This document shows positions 16,379-29,029 of a stretch of DNA of 64,000 nt, piece after piece. How positions within the stretch are numbered: the stretch's first letter is position 1; each line of letters begins with the position of its first letter. Position numbers and translations under genes: made by a program. Under the pieces are notes generated by a model. It made no database searches and had not been told where the DNA came from. It saw only the letters and a program-made list of their open reading frames with translations. The stretch is from a candidate division WOR-3 bacterium (lineage in GTDB: Bacteria; Hydrothermota; Hydrothermia; LBFQ01; DSFT01). The stretch is taken from NCBI GenBank assembly GCA_025060695.1, contig JANXBH010000002.1, positions 82,996-146,995 of the forward strand, read 5' to 3'.

Positions 16379-17272
16379 TTAAAGTTTAAAGTTATTCCTA
16401 ATATAATTTTTAAAAATTTGTATATCTTCACTAATTACTCTTATACTTCCTGTCTTATGCCTAAATATAAGAGTAAAATTTTTAGCTAAGACATCATCAG
16501 CGAAGTCCATGGCAACTTGCATATTCTTCGAGTTTGAATTTACTATGATTGAAGTGTTTTCCTCATTCATGCTATTTCTTTCTATAAGTATATCTATATC
16601 TTCTTTTTCTTCAAAAAATCTTGAGTGAAATGTTGAAAGACTTTGATTACTAATTGTGATTTTCAAAGTTTTTCCTTTATAGTCTAAGTTTAAATATTCT
16701 ATATTTTTAAGCTTTTCCTCATATATCTTTTCTTCTTCTTCTATTTCCTCTTGTGCTTTCTGGGTTAAACCCTTTGCCATTAATTCCTCATATAATCTTT
16801 CCACAAATTTAGAATAATCCAAATCTTGTGATAGTAAATTCAATATAATCCTTCCAATTTCTTCATTTGGTTCAATTCTCAATATAGTCTTTATTCTCTT
16901 TACGAGTAAACTATCCTTTTTTACTAAACCTTCAGATTCTGCCCTTGGAAAACCAAACCTATCTATAATATCTATTGCATGAAGTGCACTATTATTGATG
17001 TTAATTTCTGGAAAAAATTTTTTTAACACTAAAATAATACTGGAATTTATGTTTAAGTCTTGATGATGGTCAAAATTATTTAAATTAGGGTCATAAGAAT
17101 TCCCAACATCTATGAGTATAATTCCACTGTCGTTTAGATATTCTGATGGAACATTTTGAGGATAAATATATTCTATAGTTGCATCTGGATATAAATACTT
17201 TAAAATAGAAATTGCTAAGAAGTCATCTAAATGACGAGGTGGTAAATGACTAACTATTTTCTTTACTACCAT
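16379..17272 (-). CDS. MYG1/UPF0160 family metal-dependent hydrolase
   Basis: 'DVGNSYDPNLNNFDHHQ' motif. Confidence 0.55.
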   Translation of the reverse strand: MVVKKIVSHLPPRHLDDFLAISILKYLYPDATIEYIYPQNVPSEYLNDSGIILIDVGNSYDPNLNNFDHHQDLNINSSIILVLKKFFPEININNSALHAIDIIDRFGFPRAESEGLVKKDSLLVKRIKTILRIEPNEEIGRIILNLLSQDLDYSKFVERLYEELMAKGLTQKAQEEIEEEEKIYEEKLKNIEYLNLDYKGKTLKITISNQSLSTFHSRFFEEKEDIDILIERNSMNEENTSIIVNSNSKNMQVAMDFADDVLAKNFTLIFRHKTGSIRVISEDIQIFKNYIRNNFKL

Positions 17273-18756
17273 TATAGGAATTTTGTAATTATTTTTAAAT
17301 AATTTTCATATCTCTCTTTGTTTATTTTCCCCATGGAAACCGCTTCTACTATTGAGCATCCCTCTTCCTTGATATGAAAACAATCTCTAAATGCACACTT
17401 GTATTTACTAAACTCCCTAAAGCAATTTCTAACATCCTCCTTTTTCATGATTTCATTTAGTTCTATCTTTGAAAATCCCGGAGTATCTGCTATAAATGTT
17501 TCATTATCAATAGAATATAGTTTTACTTCAGTAGTAGTTTGGGTTCCTCTTTTTAACCTTTTGCTAACTTCACCTATTCTTATATCTACGTTAGCTAAAG
17601 CTTTAATTAGTGAACTCTTACCTACACCACTCGGTCCAGCTAACACTACCAAGTCCCCCCTTATTCTATTTAAAAGTATATCCAAGTTCATATTTTCTTT
17701 TACACTAACCGTAATCACTTCATACCCAGCATCTTTATAAATACTTACATATCTTTCTAATTCTTCATTTGGTGTAATATCTACTTTATTGAAAACTATT
17801 ATACTTGGAATATTTAAAAATTCACACGCACAAAGAATTTTATCTAACTGAATTTGAACAATTTCAGGTTCTCGTATTGTAAACATTAAAATACACTTAG
17901 ATACATTTGCAATAGGTGGTCTTGGTAATAAATTTGTCCTTTCTTTTATTTTTTCAATTACAAAAAACTCACCTTCTCTTTTCCCAACAACTATATCTCC
18001 TACATATATTTTTCTTTCAGATTTTAATAATTTTCCTCTTGGAATAGCCCTAAAGACCTTGCCTTTTGAGATTACACTTAATTTTTGACCCTCTCTTGAA
18101 ATAACAGTTCCTATACATAAGTTCTTTCTAATAATATCAAGTATTTCTTCAATAACTTCATCCTCCCTTAAATTAGTTGTGTCTATTATAAATGCATCAC
18201 GTGAAGGTCTAAGCGGTGATATTTCTCTATTTAAATCTGAAATATCTCTATTTTTTAGAATTTCCAGAATATCCTCATATGATACATTACTTTTATTTAA
18301 CTGCTTATATCTTCTCATTGCCCTTTCTTCTAATTTTGCGGTTATGTAGAACTTATAATCTGCATCTTTCAAAACAACTGTCCCAATATCCCTTCCCTCT
18401 ACTATTGCTCCATCTTTTGAAAGTTCACGTTGAATGTCAATTAAAAAATCTCTAACTTGCTTAAATTTAGAAATTTCAGATGCAAGATTTCCTACTTTTT
18501 CATCCTTAATATTATCAGTTATATCTTCTCCATTCAAGAATGTTCTTGCAGTTTTATTTATAAATTTTTGTTCTATCTTTAGATTTTTTAAAAATTCAAA
18601 ATTATTATAGTTTTGCATCTTATTCTGGATTATATAGTATGCAATCGCTCTGTATAAAGCCCCGGTTTCTACATACTTTATATTTAGAATCTCACTTAGT
18701 TTTTTTGCAATAGAACTTTTTCCCGAACCTGCTGGACCATCAATGGCAATAATCAT
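17272..18756 (-). CDS. cmk-rsgA: fused cytidylate kinase (N-terminal) and ribosome small-subunit-dependent GTPase RsgA (C-terminal)
   Basis: N-terminus 'IAIDGPAGSGKSS' (Cmk, about 210 aa). C-terminus has an OB domain, then permuted GTPase motifs 'VFNKVD', 'GPSGVGKSS' and 'DTPGF', and a Zn finger 'CAFRDCFHIKEEGC' (RsgA). One uninterrupted 494-aa ORF. Confidence 0.8.
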   Translation of the reverse strand: MIIAIDGPAGSGKSSIAKKLSEILNIKYVETGALYRAIAYYIIQNKMQNYNNFEFLKNLKIEQKFINKTARTFLNGEDITDNIKDEKVGNLASEISKFKQVRDFLIDIQRELSKDGAIVEGRDIGTVVLKDADYKFYITAKLEERAMRRYKQLNKSNVSYEDILEILKNRDISDLNREISPLRPSRDAFIIDTTNLREDEVIEEILDIIRKNLCIGTVISREGQKLSVISKGKVFRAIPRGKLLKSERKIYVGDIVVGKREGEFFVIEKIKERTNLLPRPPIANVSKCILMFTIREPEIVQIQLDKILCACEFLNIPSIIVFNKVDITPNEELERYVSIYKDAGYEVITVSVKENMNLDILLNRIRGDLVVLAGPSGVGKSSLIKALANVDIRIGEVSKRLKRGTQTTTEVKLYSIDNETFIADTPGFSKIELNEIMKKEDVRNCFREFSKYKCAFRDCFHIKEEGCSIVEAVSMGKINKERYENYLKIITKFL

Positions 18757-21040: not shown

Positions 21041-21754
21041 TTGAAAAGAAGAGAATTTTTAAAGATTATAGCTATAAGTAGTCTTTTAACCTTAATAAAA
21101 GTAAATACTTTAGAAGCAAAAAAAGGAGGTAAGAAGATGCCATTTACAGAATATAAAGCTAAGAACTATAAGGAAATAAGACCTCAACTTTGGAACATGG
21201 ATGGTATATCTCAAAAGACTATGGACGAACATATAAAACTATACGAAGGGTATGTTTCAAAATACAATGAAGCTATGAAACTCTTAGAAAATCTTAGTGA
21301 TGATGATTATACAAAGGCAAACCCTACTTATTCTACAATCAGAAGTATAAAGGTAGATATTACAAGAGCCATTGGTGGAATAAAAAATCACGAGCTATAT
21401 TTTGAACACTTAGGAGGAAAAGGCGGAAAACCAGAAGGAAAACTTCTTGAACAAATTGAAAAAGACTTTGGTAATTATGAAAGATTTTTAAAAGAATTGA
21501 GAGCTACTGCAATGGCAGCAAGAGGATGGGCATGGGTTTCATATGACCATAACTTTAAAAGGCTATTTATAGCTATAGGTGATGAGCAAAATACTTTTCC
21601 AATTTGGAACTCTACACCTATTTTAGGTATAGATGTATTTGAACATGCATATTTTATAGACTATGGAACTGCAAGGGCAAAGTATTTAGATGCATTCTTT
21701 CAAAATCTTGACTGGAAAGCTGTAGAAAAAAACTTTGAGAGCTTAAAGATATAA
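21041..21754 (+). CDS. sod: Fe/Mn superoxide dismutase with Tat-type signal peptide (alternative cytoplasmic start at about 21137)
   Basis: 'DVFEHAYFIDY' and 'GWAWV' (SOD). The TTG-start extension encodes 'KRREFLKIIAISSLL...LEA', a twin-arginine-like leader. An internal AAGGAGGT plus ATG lies at about 21137. Confidence 0.75.
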   Translation: MKRREFLKIIAISSLLTLIKVNTLEAKKGGKKMPFTEYKAKNYKEIRPQLWNMDGISQKTMDEHIKLYEGYVSKYNEAMKLLENLSDDDYTKANPTYSTIRSIKVDITRAIGGIKNHELYFEHLGGKGGKPEGKLLEQIEKDFGNYERFLKELRATAMAARGWAWVSYDHNFKRLFIAIGDEQNTFPIWNSTPILGIDVFEHAYFIDYGTARAKYLDAFFQNLDWKAVEKNFESLKI

Positions 21755-21758
21755 AAAC

Positions 21759-22106
21759 ATGGCAAAATCAACTAATCATAAATTTGAAGAGAAATTATTA
21801 CTTCAAGAGGTTATAAAAATAGAAACTGAAAAAGCAAGTAAGATTATAGAAGACGCAAATAAAAAAGCACAGGAAATTATAAATAGGGCACACTTGGAAG
21901 CACAAAATATAATAGAGGAAGCTCATAAAGATGCACAACTTGAAGCAAGTTTAATAGTAGAAAAAGCACTTAATGAAATTCAAAAAAAGTCAGAAGAGAT
22001 AAAGAGAAAGGGAATAGAAGAGATAGATTTATTTAAGAAAAAGGCAGAAAGTTCTATAGAAAGAGTTAGGAAATTAGCAATAGACTTAATTCTCGGAAAC
22101 TATTAG
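21759..22106 (+). CDS. coiled-coil hypothetical protein
   Basis: charged heptad-like sequence; first gene of a tightly coupled operon. Confidence 0.3.
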   Translation: MAKSTNHKFEEKLLLQEVIKIETEKASKIIEDANKKAQEIINRAHLEAQNIIEEAHKDAQLEASLIVEKALNEIQKKSEEIKRKGIEEIDLFKKKAESSIERVRKLAIDLILGNY

Positions 22107-23633
22107 ATGATAAGAGGTATTTATATTATTGGGCTTCCGGGTTCACATAGAAAATCTATATCTGAATATTTAAAAAACTGGCTTGATTGGAAAATTATAG
22201 ATTTACAAGAAGAAGTTGAAAGAAAACTTCACAAGACAATAATTGAAGTTATACAAGAAAACAAACTAAAGGAATTTGAAGAAGAACAGGAAAGGTTAAT
22301 GCTTGGCAATATATTTGCAGGTGAAATATTTATTTCCTCTGATATAATACCAAAACCGGAAATTATAGAAAAACTTAAAAATAATGGGATAATACCTATA
22401 TATTTAAGCTACTCCAGACAATCGCTTGAAAGAGAACTTGAAAAAAGTCAAGAACCACATACAATACTTAGAATACATCCATACGAGGATTATGAAAAGG
22501 AAATAGAATTAGCAAGTGAACTTCTAATTAAAGTTCCTACAGAAGGCTTTTCGGACAAAGAAATCGCACTAATGATAGTTAGAAGCCTTAAAGGTGAATA
22601 TGACCTTATTTTTAGCAATAATGATAAAGTATATAGTGGTATCAATTCCTTTCATTATATAGAAGAAATACTTGATTATGAAGGATTTATTAATGCACTA
22701 TTTATTACTTATAAAAGACACTTTCTTATAAACTTTAAGTGGGTATTTGATGTAATAAAAAAGTCAAGTTTTGAACCATATGTATTTTTTATTCCTGAAA
22801 AAGAAGAAATAAAAGAATTAGAATTTGTTAAGAAGATATGGCATGAAATTATAAATTTAAAGATAAGAAAGAATACCGCAATTGTTGGTATGGGTGGGGG
22901 AAGTTGTCTTGACTTGGTAGGATTTTCAGCATCAACATTTAGAAGAGGTTTTCCATTTGTTTCAATTCCAACAACATTTATATCTCAAATAGATGCAAGT
23001 ATTGGTGGGAGAAATTCGCTACACTATATAGGAAATAAAAATATACTTGGGACAATTTACTATCCAAGATTCATTCTAATTGACCCTGTTTTCATATTAA
23101 GCTATGACGATACTAAATTTTTATATTCATTAAGCGATGCGGTTAGATATGGACTTCTTTTTGATGAAAGCATATTAGATTTTCTTGAAAGAGAGGCAAA
23201 TAAGATAAAATTAAAGTACTTACCTACAATTGACAGTCTCGTAAGAAAATGTGCTCTTCATAAGCTAAACGTATCTTATTTAGATCCTTATGGTTGGTCT
23301 CAGCTTAGACCATTAGAATTCGGAAATACAATAGCTTACTTAATACAAGAAACATTACACTTAGACTATCAAAGAGCATTGACAAAAAGCATTTATTTAA
23401 TTTTAAAATTCCTATCAAGTCAAAATATACTAAAAGATAAGAAAATTTTTGAAAAGGTTATAGGTATATTTGATAATTATGGACTAGAATATAAGCTTGA
23501 AAATGGCGATATAGAAAAACTTTACAAAAAGTGCAATTTAGATGAAATTGAGATTTTTGGAATTGAGACTTATAAGTCTCCAATTCCACTAAGAATAAAT
23601 AAAGATGATTTCTTTAGAAGTTTAGAAAGTTGA
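22107..23633 (+). CDS. fusion of a degenerate shikimate-kinase-like domain and a 3-dehydroquinate-synthase-like domain (probable pseudoenzyme)
   Basis: The C-terminal half contains 'GMGGGSCLDLVGFSASTFRRGFPFVSIPTTFISQIDASIGG' (DHQS glycine-rich NAD site), but 'GGRN' replaces GGKT and 'GNTIAY' replaces the metal-binding His motif. The N-terminal 'GLPGSHRKS' is a broken Walker A. Confidence 0.5.
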   Translation: MIRGIYIIGLPGSHRKSISEYLKNWLDWKIIDLQEEVERKLHKTIIEVIQENKLKEFEEEQERLMLGNIFAGEIFISSDIIPKPEIIEKLKNNGIIPIYLSYSRQSLERELEKSQEPHTILRIHPYEDYEKEIELASELLIKVPTEGFSDKEIALMIVRSLKGEYDLIFSNNDKVYSGINSFHYIEEILDYEGFINALFITYKRHFLINFKWVFDVIKKSSFEPYVFFIPEKEEIKELEFVKKIWHEIINLKIRKNTAIVGMGGGSCLDLVGFSASTFRRGFPFVSIPTTFISQIDASIGGRNSLHYIGNKNILGTIYYPRFILIDPVFILSYDDTKFLYSLSDAVRYGLLFDESILDFLEREANKIKLKYLPTIDSLVRKCALHKLNVSYLDPYGWSQLRPLEFGNTIAYLIQETLHLDYQRALTKSIYLILKFLSSQNILKDKKIFEKVIGIFDNYGLEYKLENGDIEKLYKKCNLDEIEIFGIETYKSPIPLRINKDDFFRSLES

Positions 23634-24637
23634 ATATGTTGCTTTTTATAATTAATCTTGAAGAGATTAAAATAATGGCAGTTGGTGATATTATGCTTGG
23701 CTCACCATATCCAAATGCATCAAGAATGCCACCAAATGATGGAAAGGACTTACTTAAACCCGCATATAGTATATTTTCAAAGGGAGATATAGTTTTTGGA
23801 AATCTTGAGGGTCCGTTTTATGATAGTGGTTCTTCTGTTAAGTGTTCAGATGAAAGTGCAAGAGCTTTAAGATGCTTTGCATTTAGAATGCCTTCAAGAT
23901 ATGCAATATATTTAAAAGAAGCAGGATTTAACATATTAAGTCTTGCAAATAATCATATTATGGATTTTGGAATGGAAGGGGTAAGACATACTCAAAGATT
24001 ACTTGATAGTTTGGGTATTAATTATTGTGGTATAGGAAAGGAAATGAAAGTTATGAAAGTAAAAGACTTAAAAATAGGGTTTTTATGCTTTAATCATAAT
24101 CCTATATCTTTAAACATAAATGATATTGAAGGTGCAAGAAAAGTTGTAAGAGAAAATAGAGATAAGGTAGATATTTTAATTGTTTCTTTTCACGGTGGTG
24201 CGGAAGGTTCATCAAGACAAAGAGTTCCATATGAAACTGAATATTTCTACGGTGAAAAAAGAGGGAATTTAAGAGTATTTTCAAGAGCGGTAATTGATGA
24301 AGGTGCTGACTTAGTTATTGGTCATGGTCCGCATGTTTTAAGAGGAATGGAAATTTACAAAGATAGACTAATTGCATATTCACTTGGGAACTTTTTGACT
24401 TATGGATGGTTTAACTTATCTGGTCCTCAGTCCATAACTGCAATACTTGAAGTAAAAGTAGATAAACACGGTAAATTTTTAGAAGGTAAAATATATCCTT
24501 TTAAGCTTGAGGGGTTAGGAATATTAAAAGAAGATAATACGAACAGTGCAATAAAAATTATAAAACAACTATCAGAATTAGATTTCAAAGATACCTATCC
24601 TAATATTTTTGAAGATGGGACAATCAAGCCAAGGTAA
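23630..24637 (+). CDS. CapA/PgsA-family metallophosphatase
   Basis: 'MAVGDIMLG', 'GNLEGP', 'ANNHIMDFG' and 'SFHGG'. Confidence 0.7.
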   Translation: MNMLLFIINLEEIKIMAVGDIMLGSPYPNASRMPPNDGKDLLKPAYSIFSKGDIVFGNLEGPFYDSGSSVKCSDESARALRCFAFRMPSRYAIYLKEAGFNILSLANNHIMDFGMEGVRHTQRLLDSLGINYCGIGKEMKVMKVKDLKIGFLCFNHNPISLNINDIEGARKVVRENRDKVDILIVSFHGGAEGSSRQRVPYETEYFYGEKRGNLRVFSRAVIDEGADLVIGHGPHVLRGMEIYKDRLIAYSLGNFLTYGWFNLSGPQSITAILEVKVDKHGKFLEGKIYPFKLEGLGILKEDNTNSAIKIIKQLSELDFKDTYPNIFEDGTIKPR

Positions 24638-25283
24638 AAACATTGAAAAAATATTAAGTATTTTAAAAAAGGAATATAAAAATTGGGATGAAAATGTAGC
24701 AACGGTAAAACAAATGATAAAAGTACATAACTTTGAACCATTTAAAAGCCTAATTATGGCAATTATTTCAACTCAAACAAAAGATAGTATAACTTCCAAG
24801 GTGTCCGAAAAACTATTTCAAATTGCAAACAGTCCAAAAGAAATTTTAAAAATTCCTGATAAGGAATTAGAAAATACTTTAAAATCTGTTTCATTTTACA
24901 AAAGAAAAGCGAAGTATATAAAAGACACTTGTAGAATTATCATAGAAGAATACAAAAACAAAATACCCTCTAATTTTGACAAGCTAATAAAATTACCGGG
25001 TGTAGGAAGAAAAGTTGCAAATGTATTTCTATCGCATGTATATAAGAAAGATGTTATAGCTGTTGATACACATGTCCATAGAATATCAAATAGATTAAAA
25101 TGGGTAAATACAAAAAATCCTAACCAAACCGAAAAAGAGTTATATAAAGTAGTGCCAAAGCGTCTATGGAGAGATATAAATTTATATCTTGTAGCATTTG
25201 GACAAGCAATATGTTCATATAAACCAAAGTGTAGCATTTGTCCTATATATGAACTTTGTCCCTATGAAAATAAAAGACTTTAA
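24609..25283 (+). CDS. nth: endonuclease III-family HhH-GPD DNA glycosylase
   Basis: 'LPGVGRKVANVFL' HhH-GPD motif; C-terminal Cys cluster 'CSYKPKCSICPIYELC'. Confidence 0.7.
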   Translation: MKMGQSSQGKNIEKILSILKKEYKNWDENVATVKQMIKVHNFEPFKSLIMAIISTQTKDSITSKVSEKLFQIANSPKEILKIPDKELENTLKSVSFYKRKAKYIKDTCRIIIEEYKNKIPSNFDKLIKLPGVGRKVANVFLSHVYKKDVIAVDTHVHRISNRLKWVNTKNPNQTEKELYKVVPKRLWRDINLYLVAFGQAICSYKPKCSICPIYELCPYENKRL

Positions 25284-25294
25284 AATTTTTCTCT

Positions 25295-26017
25295 TTGGAT
25301 ATACTAAAAGCACAAGGACTCGTTAAAAAATATGGAAAGAGAACAGTAGTAAAAGGTATTAATATTGAAGTTTGTACAGGTGAAGTAGTAGCACTTCTTG
25401 GACCAAATGGTGCAGGAAAAACAACAACATTCTATATGATTATGGGAGCAATAAAACCAAACAAAGGGAAGGTATTTCTCGACGATAAAGAAATTACGAG
25501 ACTTCCAATGTACAAAAGAGCAAGACTTGGTATAGGTTATTTACCACAAGAAGCATCTATTTTTAGAAATCTTAAAGTATGGGATAATGTATATAGCGTC
25601 CTTGAAATGAAGAAAATGAAAAAAATAGAAAGAATAGAAAAGACCAAAAAGCTTTTAGAAATGTTGAATGTTTTAAAAGTAAAAGATAATAAGGGTTACC
25701 AGCTTTCGGGTGGTGAAAGAAGAAGAGTTGAAATAGCAAGAGCACTTGCATTAGACCCGAAGTTCTTACTATTAGATGAACCTTTTACAGGAATTGACCC
25801 AAAAACAAGAGAAGAAATACAAGATATCATAATTCAGTTAAAGAATATTGGAATTGGTATTTTAATTACAGACCATAACGTAAGGGAAACACTTGAAATT
25901 ACCGATAGGGCTTATATTATATACGATGGAGAGATTTTGATTGAGGGAACATCTAAGGAATTAATAGAAAATCCAAGAGTTAGAGAGCTATATATTGGTT
26001 GGAGATTTAAAATTTAG
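25295..26017 (+). CDS. lptB: LPS export ABC transporter ATP-binding protein
   Basis: 'GPNGAGKTT', 'LSGGERRRVEIAR' and 'LLLDEPF'; 240 aa. Confidence 0.8.
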   Translation: MDILKAQGLVKKYGKRTVVKGINIEVCTGEVVALLGPNGAGKTTTFYMIMGAIKPNKGKVFLDDKEITRLPMYKRARLGIGYLPQEASIFRNLKVWDNVYSVLEMKKMKKIERIEKTKKLLEMLNVLKVKDNKGYQLSGGERRRVEIARALALDPKFLLLDEPFTGIDPKTREEIQDIIIQLKNIGIGILITDHNVRETLEITDRAYIIYDGEILIEGTSKELIENPRVRELYIGWRFKI

Positions 26018-26022
26018 TATAG

Positions 26023-26559
26023 GTGGTATTTGGTATATTGTCTGTTATTATAGGTTCGGTTTTAGGAATTTATTCTATTTATTTAATGAGAGTAAAAAAT
26101 GATATAGTTCTTCCTTCAATACTGATAGTTTTTGTGCACTTTGCTATGATTTTGGGTATATTTCTTATTACAAAGAATATAGGACTTGGCTTTGTAGCAA
26201 TGATATTTTATAATATTCTCTTCGTTTCTGAAATTATCATCTATATTATTAGAAATAAGGATACAAGTGCGAAAATTGAGAAACTTAAAAGTGATGTAAA
26301 TGAGGAAATCAAGTTTTGGGAAAGTGTGTTTTTAGAAAATCACAGATTTGTAGACGATGAGGAATGTTTCCATCATTTGTTAAGAGTTAATAAACTCGTA
26401 GAAAGAGCAAGAGAACTTAATTTAATTGAAATAGTAAATCCGCTTCTAAATTTTATTGCAAAAAATAAGGACTATTTTAAAAACTATGGAGTATCAAGAA
26501 TTTCAGAAAATGCTAATATAGATAGAAATAGCTGGTGGCTATATGTAGATAAGATGTAA
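26023..26559 (+). CDS. hypothetical membrane protein
   Basis: three predicted TM segments at the N-terminus. Confidence 0.3.
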   Translation: MVFGILSVIIGSVLGIYSIYLMRVKNDIVLPSILIVFVHFAMILGIFLITKNIGLGFVAMIFYNILFVSEIIIYIIRNKDTSAKIEKLKSDVNEEIKFWESVFLENHRFVDDEECFHHLLRVNKLVERARELNLIEIVNPLLNFIAKNKDYFKNYGVSRISENANIDRNSWWLYVDKM

Positions 26560-27295: not shown

Positions 27296-29029
27296 GTGGG
27301 GTTCGCTATAGGGACCATTGGTCCCTTTTTACTAAGTATTTCTGACTATTACTATTTTTCAAGAGCATTAAGTCATTATGGATTAAATTTTTCTGACTTA
27401 GGATATTTTAAAGATATTTCTGTTGAAACCAATTTAAAACCCCTTGGCTTTTTAAATTTCCTAAAAAGTCCCTTTAAAATTGATACGTTTGGTTATAAAA
27501 TATTAAGCAATATTCCTATCATAACTCTTGAAACTATTATAAATGAGTATTATGACATTAAGCTAATCGGACCTTATTCCATTGTATTTGATTTGAATGA
27601 TACGCTCTTTAATGAATTTGAAATGAATATTAAATATCATCTTCAAAAAATTTTAAAAACTGCAGAAATATATTCTTTTTACATGGAACACTCAAACATA
27701 ACCTTAGATGAGATTGAAACTTTGTTAAAATTTGCAAAAGAGAATATAATGGAAGATAGTTCTAATATATCGAAAGACAGTGTCGTAAGTTATTTAAAAA
27801 AAATAAATTTTAGGGATTTTTTTTATGCACATTTGACACTATTAAATACATTTCTTGAGCTAAGAGACGTAATAAAGGTATTAAAGGGAAAAAGTATAAA
27901 TTTGGTATATGAAACGCAGTTTGGAAAAGTTATAATTACTGATAGCCTTTTGCCTTCAGACAGCGATTTTATATATATAAATACAAGAGGAAGTCAAAAA
28001 TATAGTAAAATATGCAATAGTAATATTAGAATTTGTGCATTTTTTGACCTTGAGGGAAACGATATTTATAACTTCGATAGTTTTTCTGTTCATACCGAGT
28101 ATGGCTTAGTATTTTTCTATGAAGATGGAGGTGATGATATTTACAAATGTTTAGGATTTTGTCTTTCTTCTTCAATTTTAGGACTTAGTTATTTTGAGGA
28201 TAATAGTGGAAATGACTACTACGATAGTGGCAAGTTTTCAATTTCTGCAAGCTATTATGGAATTTCAGTATTTTTAGATAAAACGGGGGATGATATTTAT
28301 AGGGCTGTAAACTCATCTTTGGGTTTTAGTAGTATATGGGGAATTAGTGTATTTAAGGATGAAAGTGGAAATGATAGTTATTATCTTGGTAGATATTTTG
28401 AACATAAGCCACTTTGGAAAAACGAATATTTTGGCTTAGGTCTTGGTTTCTCCATAGGCATGAGAGAAGATATAGCTGGTGGTATTTCTGTTTTTGTAGA
28501 TTATGATGGAAATGACCTTTACAGCTGTGGGACATATTGTTTAGGCAGTGCATACTGGTATTCAACGGGAATATTTATAGATTTAAAGGGTAATGATAGG
28601 TATATTGGAGTTCAATATGGTATTGGTTCAGGCATTCATATTGGTATAGGTGGTTTTTTTGATTTAGAAGGAAATGATATATATATATTTAGAGCTGGAC
28701 CTTCTATTGGAAGTGCACATGATTTTGGAACGGGTTTTTTTTACGATAAACTTGGAGATGATATTTACTATGTTTCAGGCGGTATTGGAAATAGTATAGC
28801 AAACGGTCTTGGTATATTTATTGATTCTCATGGTAATGATATTTACAATTTTACTGAATTTAACCTAAGTTGCGGTGCAAGTCAAAAGTTAGATAAGCAA
28901 AGAGAATTTCTTGGACTTGGTATATTTATAGATAAAGAAGGTAATGATAGTTATCCAACAGTTTCTAAATGTAAAAATAATTCTACTTGGAAAGTTGGTG
29001 ATATTGGCATTGGTTTTGATGGTTTTTAA
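27296..29029 (+). CDS. tandem-repeat protein with about 11 copies of a 26-28 aa unit (F-x-D-x-x-G-[ND]-D-x-Y ...); true start probably downstream (about 27602 or 27629)
   Basis: the units 'FDLEGNDIY', 'DGGDDIY', 'SGNDYY', 'TGDDIY', 'SGNDSY', 'DGNDLY', 'KGNDRY', 'EGNDIY', 'LGDDIY', 'HGNDIY' and 'EGNDSY' recur at regular spacing; the GTG at 27296 is upstream of a terminator-like hairpin. Confidence 0.5.
   Translation: MGFAIGTIGPFLLSISDYYYFSRALSHYGLNFSDLGYFKDISVETNLKPLGFLNFLKSPFKIDTFGYKILSNIPIITLETIINEYYDIKLIGPYSIVFDLNDTLFNEFEMNIKYHLQKILKTAEIYSFYMEHSNITLDEIETLLKFAKENIMEDSSNISKDSVVSYLKKINFRDFFYAHLTLLNTFLELRDVIKVLKGKSINLVYETQFGKVIITDSLLPSDSDFIYINTRGSQKYSKICNSNIRICAFFDLEGNDIYNFDSFSVHTEYGLVFFYEDGGDDIYKCLGFCLSSSILGLSYFEDNSGNDYYDSGKFSISASYYGISVFLDKTGDDIYRAVNSSLGFSSIWGISVFKDESGNDSYYLGRYFEHKPLWKNEYFGLGLGFSIGMREDIAGGISVFVDYDGNDLYSCGTYCLGSAYWYSTGIFIDLKGNDRYIGVQYGIGSGIHIGIGGFFDLEGNDIYIFRAGPSIGSAHDFGTGFFYDKLGDDIYYVSGGIGNSIANGLGIFIDSHGNDIYNFTEFNLSCGASQKLDKQREFLGLGIFIDKEGNDSYPTVSKCKNNSTWKVGDIGIGFDGF
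27311..27330 (+). terminator. putative Rho-independent terminator (GGGACC-ATT-GGTCCC followed by TTTTT)
   Basis: perfect 6-bp stem, 3-nt loop and T5 tract, 68 nt after the 26920..27243 stop; it lies inside the longest-ORF version of the next gene. Confidence 0.5.

Follow-up and report, generated by a model that had tools for sequence, protein, structure and literature searches.

A degenerate shikimate kinase-dehydroquinate synthase fusion in thermophilic WOR-3 bacteria that is likely to act by binding

Within a 64,000-nucleotide stretch of DNA from a candidate division WOR-3 bacterium (GenBank assembly GCA_025060695.1, contig JANXBH010000002.1, positions 82,996 to 146,995; hereafter the window) there is a gene at 22107-23633, on the forward strand, that encodes a protein of 508 amino acids. 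It is likely that this protein is a non-catalytic descendant of a fusion between shikimate kinase (SK, AroK) and dehydroquinate synthase (DHQS, AroB), and that it acts by binding. An earlier note made from the sequence alone had proposed that both halves are catalytically dead. This is borne out by a comparison of active site motifs, and by a score below an equivalog cut-off that intact control fusions pass. The note had also proposed that the protein is retained for a role outside the shikimate pathway, and with this the preservation of the folds, the purifying selection and the loss of the aro operon context all agree. The function would not be shikimate catalysis, and our best guess from the sequence is that of a scaffold or sensor.

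The C-terminal half of the protein (residues 166-508, nucleotides 22602-23633) was rightly described as AroB-like, matching the Pfam families DHQ_synthase with 103 bits and DHQS_C with 33.6 bits. The N-terminal half (residues 1-165, 22107-22601) passes the Pfam SKI model narrowly, with 22.5 bits against a cut-off of 22.1. On the aroB equivalog TIGR01357 the protein scores 168.9 bits against a cut-off of 305. The same is true of the whole family to which it belongs, with scores between 165 (P0045) and 191 bits (P0044), whereas two intact control fusions pass with 338 (P0046) and 319 bits (P0048). With shikimate kinase models these intact fusions score 132-143 bits and no family member exceeds 31 bits. 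The order of an SK followed by a DHQS domain, as in the model NF010556, is present. The window protein scores 146 bits on that model, for which the cut-off is 560, but the intact controls also lie below it at 318 and 371 bits, so that this narrow model does not tell the two groups apart. One relative bears the NCBI label 'iron-containing alcohol dehydrogenase'.

The family is small. When 1.84 billion representative proteins were searched exhaustively with a profile, only three clusters at 50% identity (P0001, P0044 and P0045) were returned before the scores fell to those of intact AroK-AroB fusions. Further members were found in GTDB species genomes and metagenomes with a family-specific N-terminal profile, and all came from WOR-3. 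The family comprises 12 species-level members, exclusively from thermophilic WOR-3 (class Hydrothermia), and the relatives carry the database labels candidate division WOR-3 or 'Candidatus Hydrothermia'. A low-GC clade (Type A, 26-30% G+C) includes the window, and there is a high-GC clade (Type B, 47-53% G+C); P0045 represents a third arrangement (Type C). The pseudoenzymes of Types A and B share a mean of 42% identity. The family was monophyletic in 200 of 200 neighbour-joining bootstraps, and its stem branch has a length of 0.79. Since it is monophyletic on a long stem branch, the tree fits one loss of catalysis with conservation afterwards.

Alignment of the DHQS half with solved DHQS structures (3okf, 6lk2 and 3zok) locates the changes in the active site. 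GGKT has become GGRN, as had been noted, and GHTFGHA reads GNTIAYL. A further motif, AEVIKYG, reads SDAVRYG. When the 12 species-level members are compared with 14 intact AroK-AroB fusions, degeneracy is found to go beyond what had been noted, extending to the DxD and GGG motifs of the kinase, the equivalents of Arg58, Arg117 and Arg136 of the shikimate kinase MtSK, the metal-binding Glu, the third metal His and the lysine of the DKK segment. The catalytic positions that are invariant in the intact fusions and replaced in the family are G14, D34, R59, GGG77-79, R110, R118, R133, K302, E344, N404, H407, H411, H421 and K480, with exceptions at R59 and E344 that are given below.

Three of the DHQS positions, E344 (the Glu of AExxK), H407 (the first His of GHxxGH) and H421 (the His of HGEA), correspond to the zinc ligands of the Aspergillus nidulans DHQS structure 1DQS. 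The glutamate and both histidines are invariant in 14/14 intact fusions. In the family E344 is replaced by D or, in Type B, by T, with glutamate kept in P0045 only, while H407 becomes N, W or R and H421 becomes Y or F; the window protein has D344, N407 and Y421. The proton-accepting H411, the second His of GHxxGH, is variously Y, F, N, S or D (Y411 in the window protein). The phosphate-binding K302 of the GGK motif is R, V or S (R302 in the window protein), N404 is E or K (E404 in the window protein), and the lysine of DKK is lost. A requirement of DHQS for metal and the proton-accepting role of His275 in the A. nidulans enzyme have been described (PMC7144000).

The kinase half is changed too. 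Its P-loop reads GLPGSHRKS, which does not fit the Walker A consensus GxxxxGK[ST], so the description of a broken Walker A motif stands. Within the family the P-loop is GLPGSH[RK]x, or GLPGTPKL in P0045, whereas G[SA]GK[ST] is present in all 14 intact fusions. Gly14 has become H or P, and the Ser/Thr that follows the lysine has become K, D, Y, H or L. D34 of the DxD motif is Q in 12/12 members (the window protein reads DLQ), and GGG77-79 is SSD in 12/12. R59, which corresponds to MtSK Arg58, is E, N, Q or G in nine members, and an arginine aligns there in the remaining three (L019, L020 and P0045). R118 is replaced by H, S, N or Y, and R133 by I, V, L or E; these are the equivalents of MtSK Arg117, in the LID, and Arg136. 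The importance of the P-loop and the three arginines (PMC7144000) and of the DxD and GGG motifs, which are its Walker B and shikimate/Mg motifs (PMC2593004), is established for shikimate kinase.

The DHQS half keeps the motifs with which it would bind a dinucleotide (E..K, GGGxxxD and PTT). K236, GGG263-265, D269, P288, T289, G300, G301, N312 and K386 are present in all 12 members, and E233 of the NAD motif is E in 10 and Q in two. The two former catalytic sites have fared differently. The residues that replaced those of the kinase cleft are fixed throughout the family (Q34 and S77-S78-D79 in 12/12, H14 in 11/12), and this suggests a site that has been remodelled and remains constrained. Those at the DHQS site change from clade to clade, which suggests that this site was simply abandoned.

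Both folds are preserved. An AlphaFold2 (AF2) model of the whole protein has a mean predicted local distance difference test score (pLDDT) of 85.6 and a predicted template modelling (pTM) score of 0.83, and its best matches in the PDB are DHQS structures, with a TM score on the target of ~0.8 and an identity of 17-21%. Residues 1-165 were also modelled alone (pLDDT 79), and the top 17 PDB matches to this model are all shikimate kinases, with TM scores of 0.6-0.73. Because the models match shikimate kinases and DHQS, both ancestries are confirmed at the level of predicted structure, independently of the weak sequence scores.

The gene is under strong constraint. We compared the window with its 90%-identical relative L006, for which the synonymous divergence (dS) is ~0.8. 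The ratio of nonsynonymous to synonymous substitution (dN/dS) is 0.066 for the whole pseudoenzyme, with 0.056 for the kinase-like part (residues 1-165), 0.055 for the DHQS N-domain (166-340) and 0.078 for the DHQS C-domain (341-508). These values are comparable to those of neighboring housekeeping genes, which range from 0.03 to 0.10 (LptB-like gene, 0.03; cmk-rsgA fusion, 0.079; capA, 0.10); that of the adjacent coiled-coil protein is 0.167. More than 20 independent loci, in genomes whose G+C content spans 26-53%, carry an unbroken reading frame of ~500-520 codons. The G+C content of the window (29-30%) and the COX1 and COX2 genes within it fit the Yellowstone population 'Pyropristinus Type 2', an aerobic thermophilic heterotroph with a small genome and a V-type ATPase (PMC4791363). 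The genome-wide average amino acid identity between the two 'Pyropristinus' types is 46.6% (PMC4791363), to which the 42% between the pseudoenzymes of Types A and B comes close. If our Types A and B are these two types, the pseudoenzyme would evolve about as fast as the average of the proteome.

Two further proteins may be described here. P0051 (499 amino acids, on a 2.4 kb ENA contig) is an AroK-AroB fusion outside the family in which the kinase half is intact (GSGKS and GGG) and the DHQS half is partly damaged, with GGK changed to GGE, D296 to E, the second His of GHxxGH to Y and a deletion before LNFGH. This may be an independent, half-way case of degeneration of the DHQS domain. In P0006 (506 amino acids, on a 2.3 kb ENA contig) the first ~130 residues are radical-SAM-like (PF04055), and from residue ~130 the protein is 71% identical to the pseudoenzyme. 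Either a domain was truly exchanged here, or the assembly of so short a contig has produced a chimera.

Members of the family no longer lie in a shikimate operon. The intact fusion nearest to them (P0046) does, in the order aroC-aroKB-aroQ, with the genes for chorismate synthase and type II dehydroquinase on either side. No aro gene was found beside any family member in the ~20 loci inspected, and the 64-kb window contains no gene for shikimate or aromatic amino acid synthesis. In the literature we found no account of either pathway in WOR-3.

In Type A the pseudoenzyme gene is the third of a conserved and tightly packed unit, preceded by the genes for an Fe-type superoxide dismutase (Fe-SOD) and a soluble coiled-coil protein of 115 amino acids. 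In the window these lie at 21041-21754 and 21759-22106, both on the forward strand. The unit is seen in the window, in L006, L001/L015, L003, L004/L018, L016 and L017, and in metagenome loci. The Fe-SOD gene is 5' of the coiled-coil gene at all of them, and throughout the Type A lineages the trio stays together while both flanks are rearranged. All Type A loci have the coiled-coil gene, and no others do. The Fe-SOD gene, with which the conserved unit begins, had been left out of the operon described in the earlier note.

The three open reading frames (ORFs) that were included in that operon do lie where they had been placed, at 21759-22106, 22107-23633 and 23630/23636-24637 (115, 508 and 335/333 amino acids). 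The TAG of the coiled-coil gene abuts the ATG of the pseudoenzyme, both within 22104-22109. The ATGA overlap that had been described at the next junction does not exist; the sequence there reads AGT TGA AT ATG. For the downstream gene there are two possible starts, TTG 23630, which overlaps the stop codon (TTGA), and ATG 23636, which follows the stop after two bases and is the one chosen by the gene callers. Its product was correctly assigned to the CapA/PGA_cap family (PF09587, 168.5 bits against a gathering score of 27). As a statement about an operon the note therefore holds in part. The coiled-coil partner is conserved, within the clade of the window only, and CapA is lineage-specific, with a coupling that is not conserved.

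The gene for CapA, and that for an endonuclease III-like HhH-GPD glycosylase (24615-25283, forward strand; 92.9 bits), follow the pseudoenzyme in the window and L006 only. CapA was accordingly rejected as a functional partner. At the other Type A loci the genes after the pseudoenzyme are on the opposite strand. An LptB-like ABC ATPase gene and a small membrane-protein gene follow capA and the endonuclease III gene on the forward strand in the window (23636-26559) and L006, while in L001, L003 and L004 the LptB-like gene is on the reverse strand directly after the pseudoenzyme region. This difference in strand indicates a local inversion, accompanied by the acquisition of capA and nth.

The neighbors are different in the other clades. 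In Type B (P0044, L019 and L020) the order is Trm112, a C25 peptidase of ~1160 amino acids, the pseudoenzyme and then V-ATPase subunit D. Type C (P0045) has Trm112, C25 peptidase and pseudoenzyme without subunit D. The C25 (gingipain-like) peptidase genes were seen in L010 (6519-10004), L012 (6537-10004), L019 and L020, with a Trm112-like zinc-finger gene upstream, and in L010 and L012 their stop codon overlaps the start of the pseudoenzyme by 4 nt. The peptidase of L010 has a faint match to a Por secretion tail of the type IX secretion system (T9SS). The peptidase is probably secreted, and yet it is translationally coupled to a cytoplasmic pseudoenzyme.

The family thus arose once, in thermophilic WOR-3 (Hydrothermia), from an AroK-AroB fusion that lost both catalytic machineries and left the shikimate operon, and strong purifying selection has acted on it ever since. 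We propose that the protein acts by binding and not by catalysis, as a ligand sensor or a scaffold, and such a role is likely because the dinucleotide pocket is intact and the replacements in the kinase cleft are invariant in the family. The candidate ligand is NAD(H), for which the DHQS half offers a pocket with its motifs intact, and a second candidate site is the remodelled cleft of the kinase half (H14, Q34 and S77-S78-D79). In Type A the pseudoenzyme would be made together with the coiled-coil protein, in one transcription unit with Fe-SOD, and in the clade of the window it is probably bound to the coiled-coil protein. As the coiled-coil and SOD genes are restricted to this clade, such a complex cannot be the ancestral mode of action. 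The core function is probably autonomous, because no conserved partner spans the whole family.

Several observations weigh against this proposal. NAD(H) binding is deduced only from the retention of motifs, and the GGG turn may serve folding alone. The partners vary, and none of them is shared by all members; the coiled-coil and SOD genes are confined to the clade of the window, while the deeper clades have the C25 peptidase and one of them V-ATPase subunit D. The replacements in Type A are conservative (K to R and E to D), leaving room for some residual or altered activity. Lastly, no bona fide aroB or aroK, nor any other aro or trp gene, was found in the window and one further contig region, which together cover ~85 kb of the genome.

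It might be supposed that the protein is simply a divergent AroK-AroB that still works. It has the two-domain architecture and length of the intact fusions, both folds are kept, and the 64-kb window contains no other aroB or aroK. We consider this very improbable. The metal ligands, catalytic histidine, P-loop glycine and Ser/Thr, DxD, GGG and the essential arginines are all gone, the score lies below the equivalog cut-off that intact fusions pass, and there is no aro neighbor, unlike the situation of the nearest intact fusion. At the other extreme, the disappearance of the catalytic residues of both enzymes might be put down to a decaying pseudogene, or to an artefact of annotation or assembly. 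An intact frame in more than 20 loci, a dN/dS of ~0.06, family-specific invariant residues and a confident AF2 model together refute a pseudogene, and we give the idea practically no credence. The main rival is that the protein is still an enzyme of the DHQS/Fe-ADH superfamily, but with new chemistry, perhaps an NAD-dependent, metal-independent oxidoreductase or cyclase acting on a different and probably phosphorylated substrate, with the kinase-like domain serving in regulation or substrate delivery. The retention of the NAD motifs and of D296, N312, K347 (K or R) and K386 in the substrate pocket, the conservative Type A replacements K302R and E344D, and the strong purifying selection would all be in accord with this. 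Such an enzyme is nevertheless unlikely, because the former catalytic and metal positions vary from clade to clade (K302 to R/V/S, E344 to D/T/E, H407 to N/W/R, H411 to Y/F/N/S/D and R280 to R/G). There is no shared alternative catalytic constellation, the DKK segment is lost, and the scores fall well short of all the curated DHQS-like models, TIGR04425 included.

A different possibility is that the pseudoenzyme assists or regulates the A/V-type ATPase of WOR-3 by way of stalk-type subunits, these being the coiled-coil protein, as an H/G-like stator element, in one clade and subunit D in a second. WOR-3 bacteria do use a V-type ATPase (PMC4791363, PMC12285271). The best profile match of 5/5 orthologues of the coiled-coil protein is NF006256, 'V-type ATP synthase subunit H'/AhaH, nearly full length and with a best E value of 3.5e-11, and the next are other rotary ATPase and related stators (V-type E, F-type b and SctL/FliH). 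The subunit D of Type B is genuine (PF01813, 156 bits), its gene lying 13-27 nt downstream of the pseudoenzyme in three lineages. Since that gene is solitary in these genomes, a chance adjacency to a given gene is unlikely. Yet the coiled-coil scores are far below threshold (NF006256, 36.8 bits against 107; TIGR02926, 32.2 against 48.5), as is typical of compositionally biased helices. The protein matches no Pfam family above threshold and has only two homologues among 5.8 billion proteins, and a profile search of PDB sequences gave nothing significant, ranking designed helical repeats first. There is no coiled-coil-like ORF in the Type B or C loci or beside subunit D, and no similarity between the coiled-coil protein and subunit D. 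We therefore rejected the idea that the coiled-coil protein is a genuine subunit of the V-ATPase. In the P0045 lineage both the coiled-coil gene and an adjacent subunit D are absent, the window contains no V-ATPase gene, and apart from subunit D none lies near any family member. The genome of the window has its subunit D gene (P0205) on another contig among unrelated neighbors, so adjacency to subunit D was also rejected as a general rule. Taken together we regard a partnership with the ATPase as improbable, and little should be staked on its fuller form, whereby the retained NAD(H) pocket would couple redox state to the rotary ATPase through the H/G-like coiled-coil protein (low-GC clade) or subunit D (high-GC clade). 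We continue to favor a binding role of which the core is probably autonomous.

The window corresponds to part of contig JAOAEM010000002.1 of assembly GCA_026416795.1. The subunit D gene of the window's own genome is in L023 (10001-10636, JAOAEM010000003.1), and that of a Hydrothermales genome, likewise solitary, is in L021 (10001-10621). The neighbors are OmpA-like, PTPS and RuvC/RuvA genes, or a SurA-like gene, with no other V-ATPase gene within 10 kb. V-ATPase genes seem to be scattered in these WOR-3 genomes, and not gathered in one operon.

The first gene of the Type A unit looks competent from its sequence. The Fe-SOD matches Sod_Fe_C with 98.9 bits, and Sod_Fe_N with 23.5 bits, under the cut-off of 27. 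The best full-length match in the PDB is the Aquifex Fe-SOD 1COJ (E = 3.8e-39), with which the metal ligands His/His/Asp/His align (the His of 'EH', NHELYF and D..EHAY). There are two candidate starts. TTG 21041 would add a twin-arginine signal peptide, while ATG 21137, preceded by a perfect AAGGAGG, would give the 205-amino acid mature domain. The internal ATG and its Shine-Dalgarno sequence are kept in 10/10 lineages. The upstream start (TTG, or ATG in L004) with the signal peptide ([KL]RR[ED/K]F[LI]K and a hydrophobic stretch) is kept in 8/10, being lost in L003 and L027; both starts are seen in the window, L001, L004, L006, L016, L017, L026 and L029. One SOD gene could in this way provide both exported and cytoplasmic isoforms.

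A promoter scan was uninformative in DNA of 29% G+C, with 43 promoter-like sites found against 33.7 expected, and a scan for terminator-like sites, similarly uninformative at this composition, gave none on the forward strand between 20800 and 27310. A PADLOC search with four proteins returned no match for any of them, and a known defence system was accordingly rejected.

Two other genes of the window may be mentioned. A single ORF at 17272-18756 on the reverse strand (L006 78-1562) encodes a 494-amino acid protein in which a full cytidylate kinase (Cmk, 229 bits) is fused to RsgA (164 bits), a GTPase of ribosome assembly, and the fusion is kept in the 90% relative L006. We know of no description of such a fusion. 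At 27296-29029 on the forward strand (L006 9912-11645) there is a 577-amino acid ORF without a Pfam match that is also kept in the closest relative. A short motif of the type [GD][GN]D.[YI]Y (for example EGNDIYNF, GGDDIYKC, SGNDYYDS and TGDDIYRA) recurs in it about a dozen times, which suggests an undescribed repeat or beta-solenoid protein.

Pseudoenzymes that derive from metabolic enzymes are recognized regulators and scaffolds, with few bacterial examples. Here two fused enzymes have been retired jointly, yet housekeeping-level constraint is maintained across a deep thermophilic lineage. Because this constraint persists after the loss of both activities, the protein should have a selectively important function outside the shikimate pathway. 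There is a practical consequence too. The family is easily mis-scored as AroB or AroK, so that auxotrophic WOR-3 genomes would seem to possess two shikimate steps. A member of WOR-3 has been brought into culture (PMC12285271), which may open the function to experiment should the family be present in that strain.

The closest relatives by descent are the intact AroK-AroB fusions (NF010556, TIGR01357 plus SKI; P0046 and the Marinitoga protein P0007), which share with the family the order of the domains, a length of ~500-530 amino acids, the folds and the NAD motifs. Their alignment with the profile of the family spans position 3-5 to ~480, and judged by it the family clearly derives from the AroK-AroB architecture. 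It differs in the replacement of the catalytic, metal, Mg-ATP and shikimate-binding residues, and in never lying in an aro operon. The identity between the family and the intact fusions is ~24%, compared with ~35% among the intact fusions. The sugar phosphate cyclases and other DHQS-like enzymes (DOIS 2D2X, EEVS ValA 4P53, DDGS 5TPR and the AroB-related phospholyase TIGR04425) have the same fold and NAD-binding N-terminal domain. That superfamily keeps a Glu/His/His metal site and a catalytic histidine. The solved examples among the fold matches of the pseudoenzyme carry Zn2+ or Co2+ according to the titles of their entries, whereas in the pseudoenzyme family the metal site and the catalytic histidine are replaced in a manner that varies between clades. 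We found no description of a DHQS-derived pseudoenzyme in a full-text search of the literature. The coiled-coil partner resembles A/V-type ATPase subunit H/G (AhaH, TIGR02926; NF006256), its best profile match, in being a soluble, all-helical protein of ~100-115 amino acids; it differs in its sub-threshold scores, in having no V-ATPase neighbors and in having no homologues detected beyond its clade. The closest conceptual precedent is provided by plant SKL1 and SKL2, shikimate kinase duplicates that lack SK activity and have been retained for other roles (PMC2593004). The resemblance, a dead kinase kept for a new role, is one of analogy and not of membership. The plant proteins arose independently by gene duplication and have no DHQS domain. 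SKL1 keeps its ATP-binding residues, whereas the P-loop of the pseudoenzyme is broken, and SKL2 has a protein-interaction module of its own.

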